Assembly (NCBI GenBank): GCA_012842045.1
Contig: DUTP01000001.1
Location: 94,534 to 143,121, forward strand
Length of the DNA stretch: 48,588 bases
Source of the DNA: Candidatus Dojkabacteria bacterium
GTDB lineage: Bacteria; Patescibacteriota; Dojkabacteria; SC72
Direction of reading: 5' to 3'
Shown here: positions 17,120 to 48,588 of the stretch, one piece after another
How the letters are laid out: each line of letters starts with the position of its first letter
Numbering within the stretch: position 1 is the first letter of the stretch
The notes under the pieces: model-generated
The model's input: only the letters and a program-made list of their open reading frames with translations
Databases searched by the model: none
What the model was told of the DNA's origin: nothing
Made by a program: the position numbers and the translations under genes

Positions 17120-19981
17120 TTACTTTTTGACTACCTTTTCTTCAAACTTCTTCTTTCTTCTCTCTTTAGTCTTCTGCTCATACATCTTTTTTCTTTGAAC
17201 TAGTTTACCATTGACCAAGAGATATGTTTTACTAATCCATCTCCACCCTAAACCTGTTAGTAGTAAAGCAGTACCCATTATTACAATATTCTTAGAATTA
17301 TTAAATAGGCCTGTTCTTGGTTGTACTGGAGGCTTCTCTGGAGGAATACACTGACAAGTTTGTTGATCACATTGACTCCATGGACAAGAAGCATCTTCTG
17401 GGTCTCCTGCCTCACAGGTTTCGCCTGGATCTAAGTTTCCATCTCCACATGTCATACATGTACAATATATCTCAAAGCCACGCTCTAAAGTTGTACCATC
17501 TCCCTTTGTAACAACTACATTATTCTTGTAAACACCAAAATTCTCTTTGTTTACCTTTAATTTGTAGGTAAATATCTGAACTCTGTCCTCAGGTGTGGCA
17601 TCTGGATCAGCTGTACCTTTGAGTACTAGAGGAGGATCAAATGTCCATGTTATTGTTCTTGTTGCCTCGTCATATACCCCACCATCTGGAGTAATATCAT
17701 AAGGGGCAGACATAGTAGCAGCGTTTTGGTCTAAAGTATCAACAACCTTTGCTATCTCGCCATCAGCCTCCCCATTGTTTTGTAATTTAATTTCATATTC
17801 AAGGATAGCATAAGGGTTGGCAGGGTCATCAACAACACACTTGGAAACACCTGTCTTCCTTAAGATTAAATCAGCAGGCATCAGTTCTATACAATCAGGT
17901 TCTACAGTTGCATCTGTTCTTATTATATTATCATCACCATCAGTCACCCATACTGTGTTTTTATAGATCACACCGCTCTTAAAATGTTCAGTAGGTATTA
18001 GTACTTGATATGTATAGGTTAGCTTTCCTCCAGCAGGTATTTCTTTTCCTTTTGGATAGGACCATACTATCTTCCCATTTTCAAACTGACCATCATTGGG
18101 TCCATCTGGTCCTTGAATGTTTTTTATCCATTCTCCATAGAGAATTTTAGTATCTAATACATCTTCGACTTTCTTAACTCTACCTGTGTCGACACCAGGT
18201 TTATTTTCAATTGTTATAGTGTATGAAAGCTCTACAGTAAGATGGTCAGTATTGTTATCTTTACATTCGGGGTCTCCCTTCTTCTCAACAGTAAGGCTTG
18301 CTGGTGCTATCCTATCACAACCAATATCAACCTTAGCTTCCGCTTCTTTGCTCTCTCCTACCATCGGAACAAGTATAGCTTTATTGATATACCTCTCTTT
18401 TTGATCTTTTGGAGGCACTTTGTCTGTAGGTATTTTAACTGTATAAGTAAAGGTTTTCGTTTCTCCTTCTCCTATATTAAAAGGCCCCTCCCATATTATC
18501 TTCCCATTACTATATTTCCCTGGACTTGAAATACCTGTTACTTCTACACCAGCATAGGAAACTACTTTCCCATCTAAAGTATCTACTATTCTCTTAAATT
18601 GACCTGCATTTTGTGTATTTTTAACAGATATTGTATACGCTATTTCTACTATTGGTGTTTGCGTACCATCACCTTCGCACTTAGGATCACCTTTTTTTGT
18701 TATATTCAATACTGGTGCAGGAGTATCACAATGACACGTTATATCAGCTTCTGCAGAGAGATCTGGACCATCATGTTGCGTGACTGTAACACTGTTATTA
18801 TATAGTATCTCAAACTTCTCTTTTGGTATTTTTACCTTATACGTAAATACTTTCTTCACTCCTGCTTCTACAGCCAATCCCTTACCACCATTTTCGGATT
18901 CAAAATTCCATGTAAGTGTTCCATTTGAATATGAACCATTACTTGGGCTGATATTTGTTGGGGCATTAGGGAATTGGGGATTTGCCTTATCAACAACTTT
19001 TTTGATATATCCCGTAGCACTACCATAGTTTTCAACAGTTACTGTATATGTCAAAGTTGCAGATTGGTTACCAGAATCACATTGTTGTGTTACTTCCTTG
19101 TTAACAGAAAGCAACGGGTTTTCAGGATCTTGCTGCCTTACAGCTATTATTAGAAAATAGTCATTGAAGTCATAGTCACCTATCCATTCTAACCAGTCAG
19201 CCCAACATTGTTTACTTACTATCGTATTTCTAGAATCGTCATTCTGAGCCCATGCTATTTCAGAAGCAACATCTGGTTTGGCATATCTACAACATCTTCC
19301 ATTCTGTGGAGGACCCCAAAAACCAGTACCACAAACATTACCCTGGGGTTCAACCCAACCCAGCGATTGATATTTATTATCATTCCCAGGAGGACAGACT
19401 CTATTACCTGGTTTTTTAGCCCATTCTTGAAAACCATTACTCACAAAGGAAGATATATAGAAAGTCTCCCCTCCCCCTACAGATATACCTGTTTCTCTTT
19501 TCTGTCTACCTTGAGAATCTAAGTTATTCATCAGGAAATCTTTCCCTCCAAGCCCAAACGAAGCATGCATTATCCCATCCAAAGAAGCGTAATACAAAAC
19601 TAGTTCCCCTTTGACACCTGTAGGAATTGTAAATACAGATTCTTTCGAATATGTTGAATTACTTTGAGACTTATGTGCAGCCTGCTGTCCAACCGGATTC
19701 CGATAAAACGGTTTCTGATTCCAACTGTCTAACTGTGCCTTAACTTCCTCCCATGTACCACAACTAGGATCTTCTGGATAACAATTCTCACGACATTCTC
19801 CTGTTTGATCTCCACTTATAGTTTGACCTCCATCACCACCAGCCTCACTCTCTACAGGAGCAACCGTTTCTTGTTGATTAACTCTCCATAACAGATAACC
19901 ACCAGCACCACCTATTATTAAAAATAATAATGATAGTATAACTATTGTCTTTTTACTTGCTCCTACCCTAACATTTTTCAT
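17120..19981 (-). CDS. Large surface protein with four DUF11/CnaB-like Ig repeats, a Cys-rich knot and a PxTG-TM anchor
   Basis: N-terminal TM. Repeats start LSVNK/LNITK/LTVEK/LILRK and end YNNSV/YINKA/YKNTV/YKNNV. C-terminal QPRTG, TM, basic tail. Confidence 0.75.
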   Translation of the reverse strand: MKNVRVGASKKTIVILSLLFLIIGGAGGYLLWRVNQQETVAPVESEAGGDGGQTISGDQTGECRENCYPEDPSCGTWEEVKAQLDSWNQKPFYRNPVGQQAAHKSQSNSTYSKESVFTIPTGVKGELVLYYASLDGIMHASFGLGGKDFLMNNLDSQGRQKRETGISVGGGETFYISSFVSNGFQEWAKKPGNRVCPPGNDNKYQSLGWVEPQGNVCGTGFWGPPQNGRCCRYAKPDVASEIAWAQNDDSRNTIVSKQCWADWLEWIGDYDFNDYFLIIAVRQQDPENPLLSVNKEVTQQCDSGNQSATLTYTVTVENYGSATGYIKKVVDKANPQFPNAPTNISPSNGSYSNGTLTWNFESENGGKGLAVEAGVKKVFTYKVKIPKEKFEILYNNSVTVTQHDGPDLSAEADITCHCDTPAPVLNITKKGDPKCEGDGTQTPIVEIAYTISVKNTQNAGQFKRIVDTLDGKVVSYAGVEVTGISSPGKYSNGKIIWEGPFNIGEGETKTFTYTVKIPTDKVPPKDQKERYINKAILVPMVGESKEAEAKVDIGCDRIAPASLTVEKKGDPECKDNNTDHLTVELSYTITIENKPGVDTGRVKKVEDVLDTKILYGEWIKNIQGPDGPNDGQFENGKIVWSYPKGKEIPAGGKLTYTYQVLIPTEHFKSGVIYKNTVWVTDGDDNIIRTDATVEPDCIELMPADLILRKTGVSKCVVDDPANPYAILEYEIKLQNNGEADGEIAKVVDTLDQNAATMSAPYDITPDGGVYDEATRTITWTFDPPLVLKGTADPDATPEDRVQIFTYKLKVNKENFGVYKNNVVVTKGDGTTLERGFEIYCTCMTCGDGNLDPGETCEAGDPEDASCPWSQCDQQTCQCIPPEKPPVQPRTGLFNNSKNIVIMGTALLLTGLGWRWISKTYLLVNGKLVQRKKMYEQKTKERRKKKFEEKVVKK

Positions 19982-21624: not shown

Positions 21625-23964
21625 CTACTTCACTCTTTTCTCTAACCTTCTTCTCCTACTCTCTCTTTCTCTGACTATGCTTTTCTTCTTAGCTGTAGTC
21701 CGAGATGTAGATATAGATGAAGAAATCCTAGATACTATATTTGACATTGTAGCATAAACCTTACCAGGAAGTGTAGCTATCCATGTCCACCCCATACCTA
21801 ACACCAAGAGTGCTACCCCCATTATTACAATATTCTCTGTTTCATCAAAGAGACCTGTTGATGGAACAGAGCCATCTGATTCTTCACCTTCGGAATCTTT
21901 ACAGTCTTCCGGACAATTTTCATCATCCTCTTCATCTGTACAATACCCATCTCCACATTCCTGAGGGCAATCCTCTGGACAGTTTTCCCTATTTTCATCA
22001 TCGGTACAAACATCATCACCACAGTTTGGAGGACAGTCTTCTGGACATGTCTCTGGACTCTCATCGTGAGTACACAGATTATCACCACAGATTGCCGCAC
22101 AATCTTCTGGGCATCGTCTAGCATTTTCATTATGTGTACAGAGCTCATCACCACATTCTGGAGGACAATCTTTACCACAGGTCTCCGCATTTTCATCAGG
22201 AGAACAATATCCATCACCACATGCAGCATCACAGTCCTCTGGACAGATTCTTGAATCTTCCCAACTATCACAGGTCTCATCACCACAAGCATTGACAAAC
22301 AGAGCTGTAATTACAGTACTACCTTTGACTTCACTATCTGTTCTTGAGGCTTCAATTCCATCTGGTGTTACTGAAGTATTTGGCGTAACATTAGCAGGTT
22401 TGTCTACCTCCCATTTATCAAACTTGAAAAACTCTTGTTTCTCTAAATCAGAAACACCTCTAACAACAACTCTTCTACCTGTCCCACCCTTTGCAACCTC
22501 TTGCTCTTGATCTGCATTACCACTCCCTTTGAAAACTCCATTAGGACCAACTTTGTACGTAAGAGTATATTTCACAATTTCCTCATCTTCTTTTCGAAAA
22601 TGTGCAAAATATGTTTGTGCTGATTTAACATTAGTAACTGTTAGACTTGAACTATTCCCAACATTAACACCACTTCTTTCCCAATAATCAAACACATACC
22701 CTGTCTTAGCTATTGCTGTTACTGTCTTTGCATTATGTCCAGCCCTTACATCCTGCTCTATACGTTCCTTCTCCTCCCCACCATCTAGTTTAATATTTCC
22801 ACCAGTTGCATTTTCAGCCCCACTAGTTTTAATCTTGTATGTTATTTTATATATTTTATCTTTCTCTTTAAACTCAGCTCTGTATGCGTATGTACCTGCA
22901 CCTGTGACATTTTTAATAACAATACTATTTCCACTTATCTCTGGAGTACCACCTCCAGAACCACGCCATCCAGTAAATTCGTATTGAGATTGATCTTTAG
23001 TGTTTGCTGTTACCCTTTTTGTACTGAGATTCTTGTTTGGTTCAACCTCTTGAGTAAGTGGTCCTGGAGAATCTGCAGGTCCCCCTTCTTGAGTGAGGGT
23101 ACCCTTACTATCTACTGTAAATTTAAAGGTAGCTTTGGGCACTTTTTTATATTTATATATCGCACGAATTCTTTTAATCCTCTCACCTGGGAAAGGATCA
23201 TAGAAACCACGATTATCAGACCCAAAAACTCCAGGTGTGTCTGTTCTTGTTCGTTCTGTTGTTCCATCACTCCATTTGATAAATTCGTAATTAATACCAT
23301 CATGTGCAGTTACAGATTTTCCCGGCTGTTCCCAAGGTATGTCTCTTTGTTCGGTCTCACCTTCTATATACCCCCCACCGTTTTCTCTTGCACCATTACC
23401 ATCAGTGGTATAACTTAATCCGTACTTCGCATTTCGCATCACACCGATATGTGCACAGGCATTACCCCCACATGTAGTTTGAGGATCAAAACAAAACTGA
23501 CCGCAAAGATAACCGTACTTGCTCCAAAACTTTGATCCTCCATCACCACAATTACAACATCTCCAAGCATAACGGCATGTGGAATTCCCCCATCTAAATA
23601 TCCCCCCAACACCTCTATCAGTTCTCCCGAAATCATCTTCTTCACACCACATCCCTTCTTTTCCCCGGCATTTGTAACTCGTGCTCCGACAACATTGATG
23701 ATAGTCATTTATACGATAATTTGCTTCACAGGACTGGCAATAAGATTGTGTAGGATAATCACAATAATCAGCCCTTTTATGGGGAGGTTGTGAATAACAA
23801 CAATAACACTCTTCATGCCCCGCCTCACTCTCAGTAGGAGCAACAGTCTCCTCTTGATTAACTCTCCATAATAGATAACCACCAGTACCACCTAATATAA
23901 CAAAAAATAATACTAGAAGTATAATAAGATTCTTTCTACTAACCCTAACACTAATTCTACCCAT
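21625..23964 (-). CDS. Surface protein: Cys-rich N-domain, InlB B-repeat-like domains, Cys-rich CGD repeats, PxTG-TM anchor
   Basis: GYVFDYW/FIKWSDG motifs, six CGD..C...E....CP.DC units, VPSTG plus TM and basic tail. Confidence 0.72.
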   Translation of the reverse strand: MGRISVRVSRKNLIILLVLFFVILGGTGGYLLWRVNQEETVAPTESEAGHEECYCCYSQPPHKRADYCDYPTQSYCQSCEANYRINDYHQCCRSTSYKCRGKEGMWCEEDDFGRTDRGVGGIFRWGNSTCRYAWRCCNCGDGGSKFWSKYGYLCGQFCFDPQTTCGGNACAHIGVMRNAKYGLSYTTDGNGARENGGGYIEGETEQRDIPWEQPGKSVTAHDGINYEFIKWSDGTTERTRTDTPGVFGSDNRGFYDPFPGERIKRIRAIYKYKKVPKATFKFTVDSKGTLTQEGGPADSPGPLTQEVEPNKNLSTKRVTANTKDQSQYEFTGWRGSGGGTPEISGNSIVIKNVTGAGTYAYRAEFKEKDKIYKITYKIKTSGAENATGGNIKLDGGEEKERIEQDVRAGHNAKTVTAIAKTGYVFDYWERSGVNVGNSSSLTVTNVKSAQTYFAHFRKEDEEIVKYTLTYKVGPNGVFKGSGNADQEQEVAKGGTGRRVVVRGVSDLEKQEFFKFDKWEVDKPANVTPNTSVTPDGIEASRTDSEVKGSTVITALFVNACGDETCDSWEDSRICPEDCDAACGDGYCSPDENAETCGKDCPPECGDELCTHNENARRCPEDCAAICGDNLCTHDESPETCPEDCPPNCGDDVCTDDENRENCPEDCPQECGDGYCTDEEDDENCPEDCKDSEGEESDGSVPSTGLFDETENIVIMGVALLVLGMGWTWIATLPGKVYATMSNIVSRISSSISTSRTTAKKKSIVRERESRRRRLEKRVK
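21901..22288 (-). repeat. Six Cys-rich, Asp/Glu-rich tandem peptide repeats
   Basis: CGDxxCxxxExxxxCPxDC units of about 21-22 aa. Confidence 0.85.
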
Positions 23965-43189: not shown

Positions 43190-43453
43190 CTAACACTCAT
43201 AACGAGTCCACATCCGGTAAACGAAAACCTCATTCATTTTTCTATCAACAGAATATACTAATCTGTGCTGTATATTTATTCTTCTAGAATAATATCCTTC
43301 TAGCTCCCCTCTTAAGCTCTCATAACTAGGTGGAGTTTGAAATGGGTCCTCAGTTAACACTTTCAACAACCCCCTAGCCTTCTTTTCCAAACCTGCCTCT
43401 TTGAGTAACTTCCTGTCTTTCAATGCTTTCTTTGAAAGAAAAACCTTGTACAT
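43190..43453 (-). CDS. yoeB: YoeB/Txe-family mRNA interferase toxin
   Basis: DPFQTPPSYESLRGELEGYYSRRINIQHRLVY. Confidence 0.93.
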   Translation of the reverse strand: MYKVFLSKKALKDRKLLKEAGLEKKARGLLKVLTEDPFQTPPSYESLRGELEGYYSRRINIQHRLVYSVDRKMNEVFVYRMWTRYEC

Positions 43454-43707
43454 TACCACTCCTCCTCTTCCTTATACCCCTTCCATCCATCCTTCTTACC
43501 ACTCTTCATCTTCTTAACATCTTTTACAAAATTAGGTAAAGAAGTTAAAAACAGTGTTTCCTGAATATCTCTCCAATCTTGTTCTGATATTAAAACAGCA
43601 CTACCTCCCCTATTATTAACAATCGTTACTGGATTAAACCCATTATTCACTCCCTCTACTAAACCAAAAAGATCTTTTCTAGCTTGTGTAATATTAATTG
43701 TATTCAT
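43453..43707 (-). CDS. yefM: YefM/Phd-family antitoxin
   Basis: ITQARKDLF, AVLISEQDW..IQETLFL; TAATG overlap with the toxin. Confidence 0.92.
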   Translation of the reverse strand: MNTINITQARKDLFGLVEGVNNGFNPVTIVNNRGGSAVLISEQDWRDIQETLFLTSLPNFVKDVKKMKSGKKDGWKGYKEEEEW

Positions 43708-43837: not shown

Positions 43838-44818
43838 ATGGTCATAGTAACAGGAGGATCTGGTCATGTAGGGAATGTATTAGTGAGAGCCCTACTCTCT
43901 AAAGGCTATAAGGTTGGAGTTATCGACCGAGATCCAAGAGACAAAGCCTTAAAAGGATTAGATATTGAATACCATCAGGGTGATATCAGAGACTTAGATT
44001 TCCTTACCAATATATTCAAAAAAGCAAAATATGTATGCCACCTAGCAGGAATCATATCAATAGCACCAGGAAAAGAAAAACTCATGTATGATGTTAATGT
44101 TGAAGGTACAAAAACTGTTATAGAAGCATGTAAAAAAGCAAAGGTAAAAAGACTACTCTACACAAGCTCTATACACGCACTCTACGAACCACCAAAGGGT
44201 ATCCCTATCATTGAAAAATTAGCTAAGATAACAGGTATAAAAGATGAATATGGAAAAACAAAAGTACTGGCGACCAGAGAGGTATTAGCAGCAGCAAAAG
44301 AAGGACTAAACACAGTTGTGGTCTACCCTACGGGAATTGCAGGACCATACGACTTTAGACACTCAGAATTTGGTAGTTTGATAAAAGATGCTAGAAAATA
44401 CTCAAAAGTATTCTATATAGAAGGAGGATATAATTTTGTAGATGTAAGAGATGTTGCAAATGGTATTATCCTTGCATTAGAAAAAGGAAGAACAGGAGAA
44501 GGTTACCTACTCGCAGGACAAAGTATAACCATCTTTGAACTCTTCCAACTATTAGCAAAGATAACAGATACACCTGGACCAAAAATAAAAGCTCCTACAT
44601 GTATAATTAAATTCCTTGCTCCAATTGCAGAATTCTTTTATAAATTATTAAAAAAGAAACCTGTATTTACAGAATATGCTATTGAGGTACTACACTCTAA
44701 CCACCTAACAGATAGTAGTAAAGCAGAGAAAGAGCTAGGATTTAAAGCTAGGGACATTCACAAGACAATACAAGACACTCTTGATTGGTATGAAGAAAAA
44801 GAAGTAGAAATTCAGTAA
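43838..44818 (+). CDS. NAD-dependent epimerase/dehydratase (extended SDR, dihydroflavonol-reductase-like)
   Basis: TGGSGHVG, YTSS, YGKTK, FVDVRDVA. Confidence 0.9.
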   Translation: MVIVTGGSGHVGNVLVRALLSKGYKVGVIDRDPRDKALKGLDIEYHQGDIRDLDFLTNIFKKAKYVCHLAGIISIAPGKEKLMYDVNVEGTKTVIEACKKAKVKRLLYTSSIHALYEPPKGIPIIEKLAKITGIKDEYGKTKVLATREVLAAAKEGLNTVVVYPTGIAGPYDFRHSEFGSLIKDARKYSKVFYIEGGYNFVDVRDVANGIILALEKGRTGEGYLLAGQSITIFELFQLLAKITDTPGPKIKAPTCIIKFLAPIAEFFYKLLKKKPVFTEYAIEVLHSNHLTDSSKAEKELGFKARDIHKTIQDTLDWYEEKEVEIQ

Positions 44819-44830
44819 AAATATTTAAAA

Positions 44831-46348
44831 CTATGGTTGATCTTTACACTTCCTATATATATCTAACCATATTCTAAAGTCTTCCATACTTATCCTACTA
44901 TCATCATTAAGATCTCCATGTAATAGATATTCTCCTTGTTTGACTTCTACAGGGGTATTACTACTTGTATTTCCACCATTGCCGAGTTGACCAAATCCAT
45001 TATGCCCCCAACAGTAGGTTTGACCATTATCTCCTAAACCACAGGTATGTACATCCTCAGCATTTATACTCTTTAATTTTACAGTAGAAGAAATTTCACC
45101 CTGTTTAACTACCACAGGCGTATTACTATTTTTGTTACTACCATCACCCAGTTGACCATTTTTATTCCATCCCCAACAGTAGGCTTGACCATTATCTCCT
45201 AGACCACATGTATGCATAACCCCGGCATAGATGCTAGTTAGTGTTATACCAGAAAGGACACCATCATGTTCCACTGCTACAGGCATATTACTATTTTTAT
45301 TCCCACCATTACCCAGTGCACCCTCACCATTAAACCCCCAACAGTAAGCCCGACCATCATTTCCTAAACCACAAGTATGAAAACCTCCTGTACGTATACT
45401 TGTTAATTTCACAGTAGAAGGTATTGCACCTGGTTTAACTGCTACTGGTATATTACTTGTTTCATAATTACCATTACCTAATTGCCCATTTGTATTTTGT
45501 CCCCAACAGTAAGTCTGTCCATTATTCCCTAAACCACAAGTGTGATAACTTCCTGTATTTATACTTATCAATTTCACAGTAGAGGGTATCTCTCCTAGCT
45601 TAACTGCTACTGGGGTATTACTATCTACATTATCACCATTGCCTAGTGCACCATAATAATTACTTCCCCAACAGTAAGCCCGACCATCATTTCCTAAACC
45701 ACAACTATGTATATATCCTGTACTAATACCTGTTAATTTTACAGTAGAAGGTATTACACCTGGTTTAACTGCTACGGGTGTATTACTATCTGCATTATCA
45801 CCACAACCTAACTGACCATTCTTATTCCTTCCCCAACAGTAGGCTTTACCATTACCACCTAAACCACAAGTATGCATACCCCCTGCTTTTATACTTGTTA
45901 ATGTTACAGAAGAAGGAATGGCTCCTTGCTTAACTATTACGGGCATATTACGGTCTGCATCTTCACCACTCTCTCCATTACCTAATTGACCATACTCATT
46001 ATATCCCCAACAATAGGCTTGACCATTAGAATCTAAACTACAAGTAGTACCACTCCCCGCATCAATCTCCTTATACCCATAACCATTAGACTTAAAATTC
46101 CTAAAATAGGTTAACCATAATCCAAAATCTACCATACTAACCTTACCATCACCATTAAAATCTGCCTTCTTATACTCCTCTGGTAACTCTAAGATACTCG
46201 CCTTACTCCTACTATCAAAACTATCTCCCCTATTAACCGTATATATTAATACTGAAAATGCTGTAAGAAAAAGAAATGATAGTACAAAGAAAGGTATAGC
46301 CTTCTTATCTCTCATCTTTATATTTTTAAAAATATTGTTCATTATCAC
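44831..46348 (-). CDS. Seven-repeat RCC1/BLIP-II beta-propeller surface protein flanked by two dockerin-like half sites
   Basis: N-terminal TM, DFNGDGKVSMVDF, seven YCWG.N..G.LG.G repeats, DLNDDSRISMEDF. Confidence 0.85.
   Translation of the reverse strand: MIMNNIFKNIKMRDKKAIPFFVLSFLFLTAFSVLIYTVNRGDSFDSRSKASILELPEEYKKADFNGDGKVSMVDFGLWLTYFRNFKSNGYGYKEIDAGSGTTCSLDSNGQAYCWGYNEYGQLGNGESGEDADRNMPVIVKQGAIPSSVTLTSIKAGGMHTCGLGGNGKAYCWGRNKNGQLGCGDNADSNTPVAVKPGVIPSTVKLTGISTGYIHSCGLGNDGRAYCWGSNYYGALGNGDNVDSNTPVAVKLGEIPSTVKLISINTGSYHTCGLGNNGQTYCWGQNTNGQLGNGNYETSNIPVAVKPGAIPSTVKLTSIRTGGFHTCGLGNDGRAYCWGFNGEGALGNGGNKNSNMPVAVEHDGVLSGITLTSIYAGVMHTCGLGDNGQAYCWGWNKNGQLGDGSNKNSNTPVVVKQGEISSTVKLKSINAEDVHTCGLGDNGQTYCWGHNGFGQLGNGGNTSSNTPVEVKQGEYLLHGDLNDDSRISMEDFRIWLDIYRKCKDQP
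44848..45041. repeat. 194-bp direct repeat, copy 1 (copy 2 at 48296-48489)
   Basis: Hand alignment shows three mismatches. Confidence 0.9.
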
Positions 46349-47008
46349 CTATATCTTCTCCTCAAACTTCTTCCTCCTACTTTCCTTCTGTATGAATACA
46401 AACTTCTCCTTACCCTCACTTACAAACGAAGAAAGTACAGACCATGAGATTCCTAATAGTAACAAACCTGTACCTAGAAGAATAGTTCCATTTGTATTAT
46501 CAAACAGACCTGTTTTTGGTGTTTCTGTTGTTTCTCTCCTTTCCGTGGAACCTGACTGAAGAGTGAGGATATAATTTCCTCCTGTACTCTTTGCAGAGGT
46601 AGGATCAAGCCTTGTAAATGTAAATGTTGAATCTCCCTCACCAGTAGCCTTAAACAGTAATGAGATCACTGCCCCATTGTACGGTGCAGGTGTTTGCTCC
46701 CCCGTATTGAAACATTCTACATTTATAACAGCACCTCCTGATTGAGGGAAAACATTCAGAGTACCACACTTACCTGCTACCTGAGTTGCAGAAACAAACT
46801 CTACTGGTCCTGTAAATGACATATCCAAATCTATTCCTATAAACTCATCTGTCCCACTATCTACACTTATTTCTAAGTATGTACCATCTTTCGTTATAGT
46901 TCCTGATGAAGGAACCAAAGATACTGAATTATATTCAGCAGAAGCTATACCAACAGACAGAAGTAAGAAAAACACTGTCAATATGAATATCTTTCTATAT
47001 TTTTTCAT
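46349..47008 (-). CDS. Secreted cohesin-like beta-domain protein with PxTG-TM anchor
   Basis: Signal peptide ending IASA; beta-strand pattern SVSLVPSSG...GIDLDMSF...VISLLFKATGEG; TPKTG plus TM and basic tail. Confidence 0.55.
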   Translation of the reverse strand: MKKYRKIFILTVFFLLLSVGIASAEYNSVSLVPSSGTITKDGTYLEISVDSGTDEFIGIDLDMSFTGPVEFVSATQVAGKCGTLNVFPQSGGAVINVECFNTGEQTPAPYNGAVISLLFKATGEGDSTFTFTRLDPTSAKSTGGNYILTLQSGSTERRETTETPKTGLFDNTNGTILLGTGLLLLGISWSVLSSFVSEGKEKFVFIQKESRRKKFEEKI

Positions 47009-47069
47009 AGGGCATTTGTATATATATTATTTATTTTTATACTAATTTAAATAGTATTTTAGTATCAAT

Positions 47070-48489
47070 TTATTCTATAACTAATACAGGCTCATTACTG
47101 TTTACATTCTTACCATTACCTAACTGACCAAAACCATTATCCCCTCAACAATAGGTTTTCCCTGTACTACTAACATAAGCACAAGTATGAAGATTCCCTG
47201 AAGAGACGGTTGTGAATACCACCCCTGAAGGAAGAGATACTGGCACGGCTTGTAATCTACCTTGATTACTCCTATCACCCAACTGACCATAATCATTCCT
47301 TCCCCAACAATACGTCTTACCATTACCTATCCCACAGGTATGATAACCACCAGCACTAATACTCTCCAAAGATGATACACCAGTAGGAAGTAATACTAAA
47401 ACAGGAATCTCACTTTGTGTATTACTATTATTACCAAGTTGACCGTAATCATTGTTACCCCAGCAATATCCCTTATTATCACTACCTATCGCACAGGTAT
47501 GACGGGCTCCTGCACTGATACTAACCAACTTTACAGTATTAGGAATTGCACCCTGTTTGACTTCTACAGGGGTGGTTCTTTTATCACGGCTATCACGGCT
47601 ACCATCTCCCAACTGTCCGTATGAATTTAATCCCCAACAATAGGCTTTTTGATTATTACCTAAAGCACAGGTATGAGAACTCCCTACACTAAGATTACTG
47701 AAAGATGTTACCCCTGCAGGAAAAGGAATTAAAATGGGTGCAATATTATTATTGTCATCGTCCCAACAATATACTCTATTATTACTACCCAAAGCACAAC
47801 CATGTCGGTTCCCTACACCAATACTGGTTAACCTTACACCACTAGGAATTTCACCTAATGGAGTCGCTACAGGAACGTTGCTAGTAACAGGATTGGGACC
47901 TAGGCTTAAATAATTTCCCCAACAGTAAGCTTTACCATCATCACCTATACTAAATACACGACTAGCTTCAGTACTAATACTAGTAAGCTTCACGTTATTA
48001 GGAATTGCTCCTTGTTTGACTGCTACTGGTATATTACTATCTGCATTATCACCATTACCTAACTGACCTTCGAAACCAAAACCCCAACAGTAGGCTTGAC
48101 CATCACCATTTATATTACATGTAGTTCTACTACCAACACTAATTAGAGTTGAAGTTAGTCCCTCCCCAGGAGGCATGTTTTCTCCAGGAGGCATGTCTTC
48201 TCCAGGAGGTACTTCTTCGTCAGGAGGTAATTCCACACCAGGTGGTGTTTCCCCTGGGGGTACTTCCTCATCAGGTGGTGTCATTTCACCTTTATACTTC
48301 CTATATATATCCAACCATATTCTAAAGTCTTCCATACTTATCCTATTATCATCATTAAGATCTCCATGTAATAGATATTCTCCTTGTTTGACTTCTACAG
48401 GGGTATTACTACTTGTATTTCCACCATTGCCGAGTTGACCAAATCCATTATACCCCCAACAGTAGGTTTGACCATTATCTCCTAAACCA
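47070..48489 (-). CDS. Second RCC1-repeat/dockerin-like protein; 5' part missing, TGA in the last repeat
   Basis: One repeat, dockerin half, PPGE linker, then seven repeats. The frame continues past TGA 47145-47147 as GDNGFGQLGNGKNVNSNEPVLVIE to TAA 47070. Confidence 0.75.
48161..48280. repeat. 18-bp tandem repeats encoding a (PPGE/D..)n linker
   Basis: Recurring ccaggagg/tcaggtgg units. Confidence 0.85.
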
Positions 48490-48588
48490 ACTCGGCAATG
48501 GTGGAAATACAAGTAGTAATACCCCTGTAGAAGTCAAACAAGGAGAATATCTATTACATGGAGATCTTAATGATGATAATAGGATAAG
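48488..48588. repeat. Terminal inverted copy of 48337-48437
   Basis: Exact reverse complement over 101 nt. Confidence 0.9.

Follow-up and report, generated by a model that had tools for sequence, protein, structure and literature searches.

A dockerin-type module split by an RCC1 propeller beside a putative sortase-anchored cohesin in a Dojkabacteria genome

Cohesin-dockerin pairs are a textbook case of modular extracellular assembly and a workhorse of synthetic biology. Described systems include the type I cellulosomal pairs of clostridia (Clostridium thermocellum, 1OHZ; C. cellulolyticum, 2VN5 and 2VN6; C. acetobutylicum, 6KGF) and ScaE of Ruminococcus flavefaciens (2ZF9), a sortase-anchored LPXTG protein with a single cohesin through which the cellulosome is attached to the cell wall. 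Archaeoglobus fulgidus (2XDH) and Clostridium perfringens (the cohesin-like 2JH2 and 2W1N) have cohesin-dockerin systems outside cellulose degradation, and in silico models of giant proteins from Omnitrophota place dockerin helices on either side of a CBM35-like beta-barrel (bioRxiv 10.1101/2023.11.21.568195). In this work, we analyse a stretch of 48,588 nucleotides (the window) that forms the end of contig C4 in the genome of an uncultured, ultra-small Dojkabacteria/WS6 bacterium, a member of the Candidate Phyla Radiation (CPR); the genome comprises 737 kb and is 93% complete. The last 3.7 kb of the window contain three minus-strand genes, here called g1, g2 and g3, which we describe as a probable cohesin-dockerin system whose dockerin is split by a propeller.

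With the type I clostridial pairs, this locus shares the cohesin beta-sandwich, seen in the model of g2, and a dockerin-type module of two repeats of about 22 residues, each consisting of a calcium loop and a helix; in the relatives of g1 these repeats lie 34 residues apart from start to start and carry Asp at loop position 12. ScaE is the closest analogue of g2, since it likewise has a signal peptide, one cohesin, a spacer and an LPxTG-type signal. With moderate confidence, we favour the reading that the locus encodes a minimal, non-cellulosomal display system for the cell surface, in which g2 is anchored to the wall and g1 is a cargo protein whose two half-dockerins re-form a dockerin and dock on g2.

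The gene g1 (44831..46315, minus strand) encodes a protein of 494 residues, which open reading frame (ORF) analysis, Pfam and AlphaFold2 characterise as a secreted RCC1-propeller protein with a split dockerin. Its start is likely to be the ATG at 46315 (MRDKK...) rather than an upstream GTG at 46348, which would give 505 residues. At the N-terminus, a hydrophobic helix (46235-46300) and a conserved FDSRSKA motif (46199-46219) together form a probable Sec signal with an S-x-A cleavage site (46199..46300, minus strand). The same layout, M-KKK-helix-G.FDTRS.A, is found in 14 related dockerin proteins and also in sortase-anchored di-cohesin proteins. We had considered FD(T/S)RS.A as a dockerin-specific motif but rejected it, because it also follows the signal helix of the di-cohesin proteins.

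Two calcium-loop motifs lie near the ends of the g1 protein. The first, DFNGDGKVSMVDF, belongs to repeat 1 (DFNGDGKVSMVDFGLWLTYFRNFK; 46091..46162, minus strand), which Pfam, the alignment described below and the AlphaFold2 model (helix 32-46, mature numbering) identify as a calcium loop followed by a helix. The second, DLNDDSRISMEDF, belongs to repeat 2 (DLNDDSRISMEDFRIWLDIYRKCK; 44843..44914, minus strand), which is C-terminal, with only three residues between it and the stop codon; it is identified by the alignment, by a hidden Markov model match (independent E value 1.2e-6) and by a modelled helix at 448-462. Both have Asp or Asn at loop positions 1, 3, 5 and 12, and each loop is followed by an amphipathic helix (DF..WL...R..K). 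These are the two F-hand repeats expected of a dockerin, that is, a 12-residue calcium loop (DFNGDGKVSMVD and DLNDDSRISMED) followed by a helix with F..WL...R..K. However, dockerin repeats normally form one contiguous module of about 60-70 residues, and the loop starts of g1 are 416 residues apart.

The intervening region, within the inter-repeat linker of the dockerin, encodes an RCC1-like seven-bladed beta-propeller (44933..46075, minus strand). Pfam finds seven RCC1 repeats between the motifs (RCC1, E 7.8e-66; WD40_RLD, E 1.5e-71), and the AlphaFold2 model, with a predicted local distance difference test (pLDDT) of 90.8 and a predicted TM-score of 0.83, contains 28 strands in seven blades, with pLDDT above 90 across the propeller; the propeller is thus complete and closed. 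Foldseek, which reports only the propeller, matches this model to UVR8 at E 2.7e-41, with TM-scores up to 0.93 and a root-mean-square deviation of 2.0 A; the matches to UVR8, HERC2 and RCC1 have TM-scores (TMt) of 0.74-0.93. In the model, the helix of repeat 1 ends five residues before the first strand, and the loop of repeat 2 begins about ten residues after the last strand (423-428). The helices of both half-dockerins have pLDDT values of about 80-91. The g1 sequence, the seven Pfam repeats and the AlphaFold2 model therefore agree with an initial annotation of this DNA, made from the sequence alone, which had described two dockerin calcium-loop halves around a complete seven-repeat propeller.

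Homologs with an uninterrupted module support the view that each motif is one half of a single dockerin-type module. In related Dojkabacteria, the genes beside g2 homologs start with the same N-terminal layout as g1, followed by two contiguous repeats: ADLNxDxKISIADFSIWLSxFRxFKxN, a linker of 8-10 residues, and SDLNDDGxIxIxDFxxWLxLWREYK, after which come unrelated payloads. When 14 such contiguous modules were aligned to g1 using MAFFT, the propeller came to lie between their repeats 1 and 2. The same placement had first been obtained with eight modules, and the gap of about 385 columns that spans the propeller contains no module residues. The alignment used here, consisting of 14 dockerin modules, two split homologs and eight propellers, was chosen after trying several sets of rows; alignments in which RCC1 rows were numerous put the short dockerin rows in the wrong place and were discarded. 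Conversely, a profile built from the contiguous modules matches g1 in two stretches, with an overall E value of 6.5e-26. Since the profile matches in this way and g1 and g3 are the only genes of the 737-kb genome with such calcium-loop motifs, the pair is not a chance occurrence.

The module profile was searched against 1.84 billion representatives, and 106 proteins were found at E <= 1e-10. Among 37 representatives of the family with an N-terminal module, the repeats are contiguous in 25, and the loop-to-loop spacing is 33-34 residues in 23. Pfam Dockerin_1 matches the modules of seven of eight relatives, with a best E value of 4e-7. Scores of 30.4 bits for P0162, 26.9 for P0207, 24.1 for P0191 and 23.7 for P0277 were also obtained. 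The Asp at loop position 12 and the 34-residue spacing of these modules are both dockerin-like.

The split itself recurs. The protein P0204, encoded on contig L024, has the architecture of g1 with 50% identity, and its gene is syntenic, lying beside rplA-rplK-nusG. P0191 has the same layout as g3, namely, repeat 1, RCC1, repeat 2 and then a payload, here Laminin_G_3, and can be regarded as a paralogous form with a lectin-like payload. A third protein, P0277 (367 residues, from the representative library), has a split dockerin of the g1 family around an insert that is not RCC1 and is made up of four or five repeat units of about 55 residues each (…VEVLICDGKIYRQ…DWENR.GW…), for which no Pfam match was found. 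In the split homologs both halves retain every calcium ligand and the DF..WL...R..K core, and the halves are conserved as much as the propeller. Because the ortholog, P0191 and P0277 all have the split with these residues kept, the arrangement is evidently a real, inherited and recurrent architecture, albeit a rare one (three or four of about 40 representatives). As a separate observation, the stretch upstream of the g1 ortholog (L024 1-540, 540 nt) contains no ORF of at least 50 codons in any frame; parts of it are rich in GC and prone to pairing, and it may encode a small RNA.

The gene g2 (46349..47008, minus strand) encodes 219 residues and is identified by AlphaFold2, Foldseek, its homologs and the sortases of the genome as a putative sortase-anchored protein with a single cohesin. 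All its parts are on the minus strand: a signal peptide with an AxA site (46937-47008); a cohesin module of about 125 residues forming a beta-sandwich (about 46556-46936); a short polar, Ser/Thr-rich spacer followed by TPKTG (46508-46522); a hydrophobic, presumably transmembrane, segment of 23 residues (46421-46489); and a basic tail, KEK...RRKKFEEKI (46352-46420). The AlphaFold2 model, calculated from a multiple sequence alignment of 37 rows, has a pLDDT of 81.4 and strands over residues 26-148. When it is compared with the PDB using Foldseek, the top 33 matches, and nearly all of the top 39, are cohesins; the best is 6kgf (E 4.9e-8), 2xdh ranks fourth, 1ohz has the highest TMt (0.67), and the sortase-anchored ScaE cohesin 2zf9 is included. 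The nine-stranded jelly-roll fold that defines cohesins is thus found in g2, and the model supports a cohesin fold for the 219-residue protein; the initial annotation had named the lack of such a fold as what would overturn its proposal. Homologs of g2, 39 proteins in number, were found only in Dojkabacteria-type genomes.

The anchoring signal is likewise supported. LPSTG, LPQTG or LPATG takes the place of TPKTG in the homologs, and g2 has the three parts of a sortase substrate, namely, an LPXTG-like pentapeptide, a hydrophobic segment and a basic tail. Pfam Gram_pos_anchor reaches only sub-threshold scores in the family (8 of 37 members, E >= 0.04). Three sortases are present in the genome, each matching PF04203 above its cut-off (E 6.6e-27 to 2e-24). 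In view of the LPxTG motifs of the homologs and these sortases, a sortase-mediated anchor in the cell wall is most likely. Thus, the signal peptide, the TPKTG-transmembrane-basic arrangement and the fold match bear out the proposal that the gene adjacent to g1 on its upstream side encodes a secreted, PxTG-anchored, cohesin-like protein, while the proposed attachment to the membrane most likely has to be replaced by one to the wall.

The tail behind the transmembrane segment (RR..FEKKF) also occurs in other surface proteins, both in the window and across the class. More generally, a sorting tail of the form PxTG-LFD, transmembrane segment, ...RR..(F/L)EKK(F/V) is common to g2 and to large unrelated surface proteins, and most weak matches to the cohesin profile across the class cover this tail only. 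Two ORFs of the window (17120-19981 and 21625-23964) were considered as cohesin paralogs and rejected, because they have only the C-terminal sorting tail in common with g2.

Cohesin and dockerin genes are linked across genomes. Starting from the cohesin, its gene has one or two dockerin-module genes as neighbours in six of seven informative loci; starting from the dockerin, with a search based on a five-sequence alignment, all five informative loci in named genomes have a cohesin gene 0.7-1 kb downstream. Overall, the two genes adjoin in 11 of 12 informative related loci. A search of genome contigs with a six-sequence cohesin alignment found nothing. A survey of 220 genomes of the class found a full-length cohesin-family gene in about 35 and a dockerin module (E <= 1e-12) in 13; all 13 also have the cohesin, usually on the same contig and within 3 kb. 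In the genome studied here, the sole cohesin adjoins the only two dockerin-bearing genes, g1 and g3. The payloads sampled in the family (Ig/fn3, Ig_Rha78A_N, Laminin_G_3, Gly_rich_2, and Big_2 with a clostripain-type peptidase) are binding modules or a protease and differ between genomes, and no glycoside hydrolases were seen among them. For the sampled payloads, this supports the idea, already put forward from the sequence, of a non-cellulolytic system with interchangeable cargo.

Two further arrangements were noticed in related loci. In L005 5291-5866, L011 5282-5902 and L020 6757-7398 (minus strand), a divergent gene of about 200 residues, absent from the window, lies on the opposite strand between the dockerin and cohesin genes; it matches the cohesin-family profile weakly (E ~1e-8, positions 5-121) and may encode a second, unanchored cohesin-like protein. 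In L075 (4295-5932) and L076 (4596-6125), from genomes G214 and G215 of another family of the order, proteins of 510-546 residues contain two tandem cohesin-family modules and an LP(D/E)TS sorting signal, start with a helix and FD.R..A as in the dockerin proteins, and adjoin a single-cohesin gene; this arrangement is scaffoldin-like.

In the display system that we propose, g2 would be exported and linked covalently by sortase to the cell wall via TPKTG, presenting one cohesin module on a short Ser/Thr-rich stalk. The g1 protein, and g3 when intact, would be secreted via a Sec signal and would carry the N-terminal, type-I-like dockerin of this lineage, in which the insertion of a complete seven-bladed RCC1 propeller has apparently interrupted the linker of 8-10 residues that joins the two calcium-binding repeats. 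Propellers of the RCC1 type close with their first and last strands as neighbours. For this reason a nested propeller can replace the linker without separating the halves, which would be held side by side by connectors of about five residues on the N-terminal side and about ten on the C-terminal side. The halves would then pack as the usual two-helix, two-calcium dockerin and plug into the g2 cohesin, so that the propeller, a platform for binding ligands or proteins, would be displayed on the cell surface. We infer signal cleavage, packing of the halves, calcium-dependent binding to g2 and ligand binding by the propeller; a role of the system in host recognition is speculation.

A stronger version of this reading, which we regard as unlikely, takes the inter-repeat linker as a natural, reusable insertion site, where cargo folding is coupled to docking as a form of quality control or switchable display. 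Whole binding domains would be nested there (RCC1 at least once, and the unrelated repeat domain of P0277), and the dockerin would form, and the protein be retained on the cohesin, only with a closed propeller and calcium.

The third gene, g3 (47145..48489, minus strand; ORF and Pfam evidence), is incomplete in the window. The final 99-101 nt (48490-48588, without strand) are a perfect inverted duplicate of 48337-48437 with a 50-nt spacer, as found by a repeat search (101 nt, 100%). This is a hairpin-type assembly artefact, and the true sequence ends at 48489; therefore, g3 is truncated at its 5' end, and the TTG start listed for it is spurious. Contigs from four public runs all break at the same position. 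The likely cause is a direct repeat of 205 nt, 97% identical, between 44837-45041 in g1 and 48285-48489 in g3, which comprises the last RCC1 blade and dockerin repeat 2 and is shared by the 3' end of g1 and the first propeller of g3; it suggests a recent duplication or gene conversion. A second assembly of the same organism (L001, a contig of 752,854 bp that starts within g3) runs on into further RCC1 blades, giving a longer but still 5'-open g3 of at least 745 codons. As a consequence of the truncation, the signal and first dockerin repeat of g3 are unassembled in both assemblies.

What can be seen of g3, all on the minus strand, is the last blade of a first propeller (48381-48488), dockerin repeat 2, the only repeat visible and recognised by a match to the repeat-2 half of the profile (48291-48362), a PPGE-rich linker (48159-48290) and a second RCC1 propeller (47148-48158), which ends at a premature TGA (47145-47147) at the conserved Trp of the RCC1 YCWG motif. 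Beyond this codon, translation continues in frame for 24 codons (GDNGFGQLGNGKNVNSNEPVLVIE) that complete the last blade, followed by TAA (47070..47147). A related strain from an independent digester metagenome has C at 47145 (plus strand), giving TGG, and the TGA is evidently a strain-specific nonsense change that would leave the second propeller without its last 24 residues. Recoding of TGA as Trp was rejected, because all other Trp codons are TGG, the ORFs are tight under table 11, and the related strain has TGG. Hence, of the second dockerin/RCC1 gene that the initial annotation had placed before g2, repeat 2 and the RCC1 repeats are confirmed, but the gene is incomplete and contains a nonsense codon. 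Separately, a low-depth contig from a wastewater run joins 47111 to 48051 and omits the whole second propeller (47112-48050); this junction may stem from a genuine deletion variant or from collapse across the RCC1 repeats.

Several results weigh against the display system proposed above. Repeat 1 of g1 matches Pfam Dockerin_1 (PF00404) at 22.5 bits, just below the gathering cut-off of 22.9, and over half of the profile only. The modules of all eight relatives match EF-hand families, with scores similar to those of Dockerin_1. Searches of g2 against Pfam and NCBIfam gave no Cohesin (PF00963) match, Cohesin was found in only two of 37 members of its family (best E 0.0063), and sequence and profile searches of the PDB with g2 found no cohesin; g2 is therefore identified as a cohesin only by fold comparison. 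The Pfam scans suggested earlier as a check thus gave a divided answer, with Dockerin_1 detected in most relatives, g1 just under its cut-off and g2 below detection. Several cohesin-positive genomes have no strong dockerin match at E 1e-12, the ortholog contig L024 has no cohesin in the 540 nt upstream before the contig ends, and a search found no RNA runs that contain the locus and no expression data.

Among the alternatives, the one that survives best, although quite unlikely, is that each half acts alone as a weak one-helix ligand of cohesin, so that the propeller bridges two cohesins or binds in two orientations. Both repeats keep the same DF..WL...R..K face, a neighbouring gene in L011 has only one recognisable repeat, and known type I dockerins have two binding modes, each dominated by one helix; the structures 2vn5 and 2vn6 are among the Foldseek matches of the g2 model. 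However, stable folding of a single dockerin repeat that lacks its partner helix is not known, the very short connectors of the propeller place the halves together, and two contiguous repeats are kept in most of the family.

We consider it very unlikely that the motifs are instead an EF-hand-like calcium clamp that closes the propeller and has nothing to do with g2, which would then be a sortase-assembled adhesin or a pilin-type subunit. The EF-hand matches, the failure of g2 in sequence-level cohesin tests and the presence of the CLIPPER adhesin domain (9ifr) among its fold matches fit this explanation. Against it, relatives have the module as a contiguous, N-terminal unit ahead of unrelated payloads, which rules it out as an accessory of the propeller, the 33 best fold matches of g2 are cohesins, the loop spacing and the Asp at position 12 fit dockerins, and the adjacency of the genes together with their co-occurrence in 13 of 13 genomes would be hard to explain.

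Intermolecular complementation, in which repeat 1 finds its repeat 2 in a second molecule and dimers or chains form that may or may not dock on the cohesin, is highly improbable: split two-helix modules can swap domains in principle, and the 97% identity of the last blade and repeat 2 of g1 and g3 would make mixed pairs compatible, but short connectors and adjacent propeller termini favour the intramolecular arrangement entropically. Scarcely credible, finally, is that the insertion disrupted the dockerin and left decaying, non-functional halves, or that the gene is a chimera of repeats created in assembly; although g3 has a nonsense codon, the split form is rare and the repeat-rich region did break the assembly, an identical g1 protein (P0006) is found in an independent assembly, a 2036-nt Logan contig covers g2-g3, and the 50%-identical ortholog and P0191 retain both halves, conserved as strongly as the propeller, with all calcium ligands and core residues.

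Between g1 and the rplA-rplK-nusG cluster, the window contains a YefM/YoeB-type toxin-antitoxin pair (PhdYeFM_antitox and YoeB_toxin, 43190-43707) and an NAD-dependent epimerase gene (43838-44818); the ortholog locus L024 has a different ORF, of 261 codons, in this interval.

To our knowledge, the cell-surface biology and partner recognition of CPR bacteria, which are not culturable, are almost entirely unexplored. If our reading of the locus is correct, a nested domain of 385 residues can interrupt a dockerin module and also bring it together again, a simple sortase-anchored display system is documented in CPR bacteria, and the pair is experimentally tractable, both proteins being small and soluble. 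The g2 family would add a group of cohesins that lack annotation and escape the current Pfam models. Should the linker also be a reusable insertion site, it would offer a ready-made design principle for engineering proteins with split dockerins.

Compared with clostridial cellulosomes, the system differs in several respects. Its dockerin is N-terminal, right after the signal peptide, whereas theirs is C-terminal; there is one cohesin per anchor and no scaffoldin in the genome; glycoside hydrolases are absent from the sampled payloads; the cohesin sequence is below Pfam detection; and the repeats of g1 and g3 are separated by a whole propeller. ScaE has a type III cohesin whose partner is the X-dockerin of ScaB, unlike g2, and g2 for its part has TPKTG and a long conserved tail in common with other surface proteins of the class. 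The A. fulgidus and C. perfringens systems, which resemble this one in lying outside cellulose degradation, have contiguous dockerins. The literature searched describes no sortase-anchored single-cohesin operon with variable N-terminal-dockerin cargo in CPR bacteria; none of the papers found deals with a split dockerin, an RCC1 insert or a CPR cohesin-dockerin operon, and for Dojkabacteria and dockerin there were only biogas surveys of metagenome-assembled genomes.

We found a single precedent for a beta domain inserted between the two helices of a dockerin, that of Omnitrophota, where the arrangement is a repeated unit in giant proteins, the insert is a beta-barrel and no cohesin partner has been identified (bioRxiv 10.1101/2023.11.21.568195). 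In contrast, g1 has a single N-terminal dockerin with demonstrable contiguous homologs, an RCC1 insert of 385 residues and an adjacent cohesin gene. The fold of this insert is the seven-bladed one of UVR8, the RCC1-like domain of HERC2 and RCC1 itself, but in g1 it is bacterial, predicted to be secreted, and nested inside another domain. What is new here is a propeller-split dockerin beside an anchored cohesin, a rare natural variant of the cellulosomal "plug and socket" pair.

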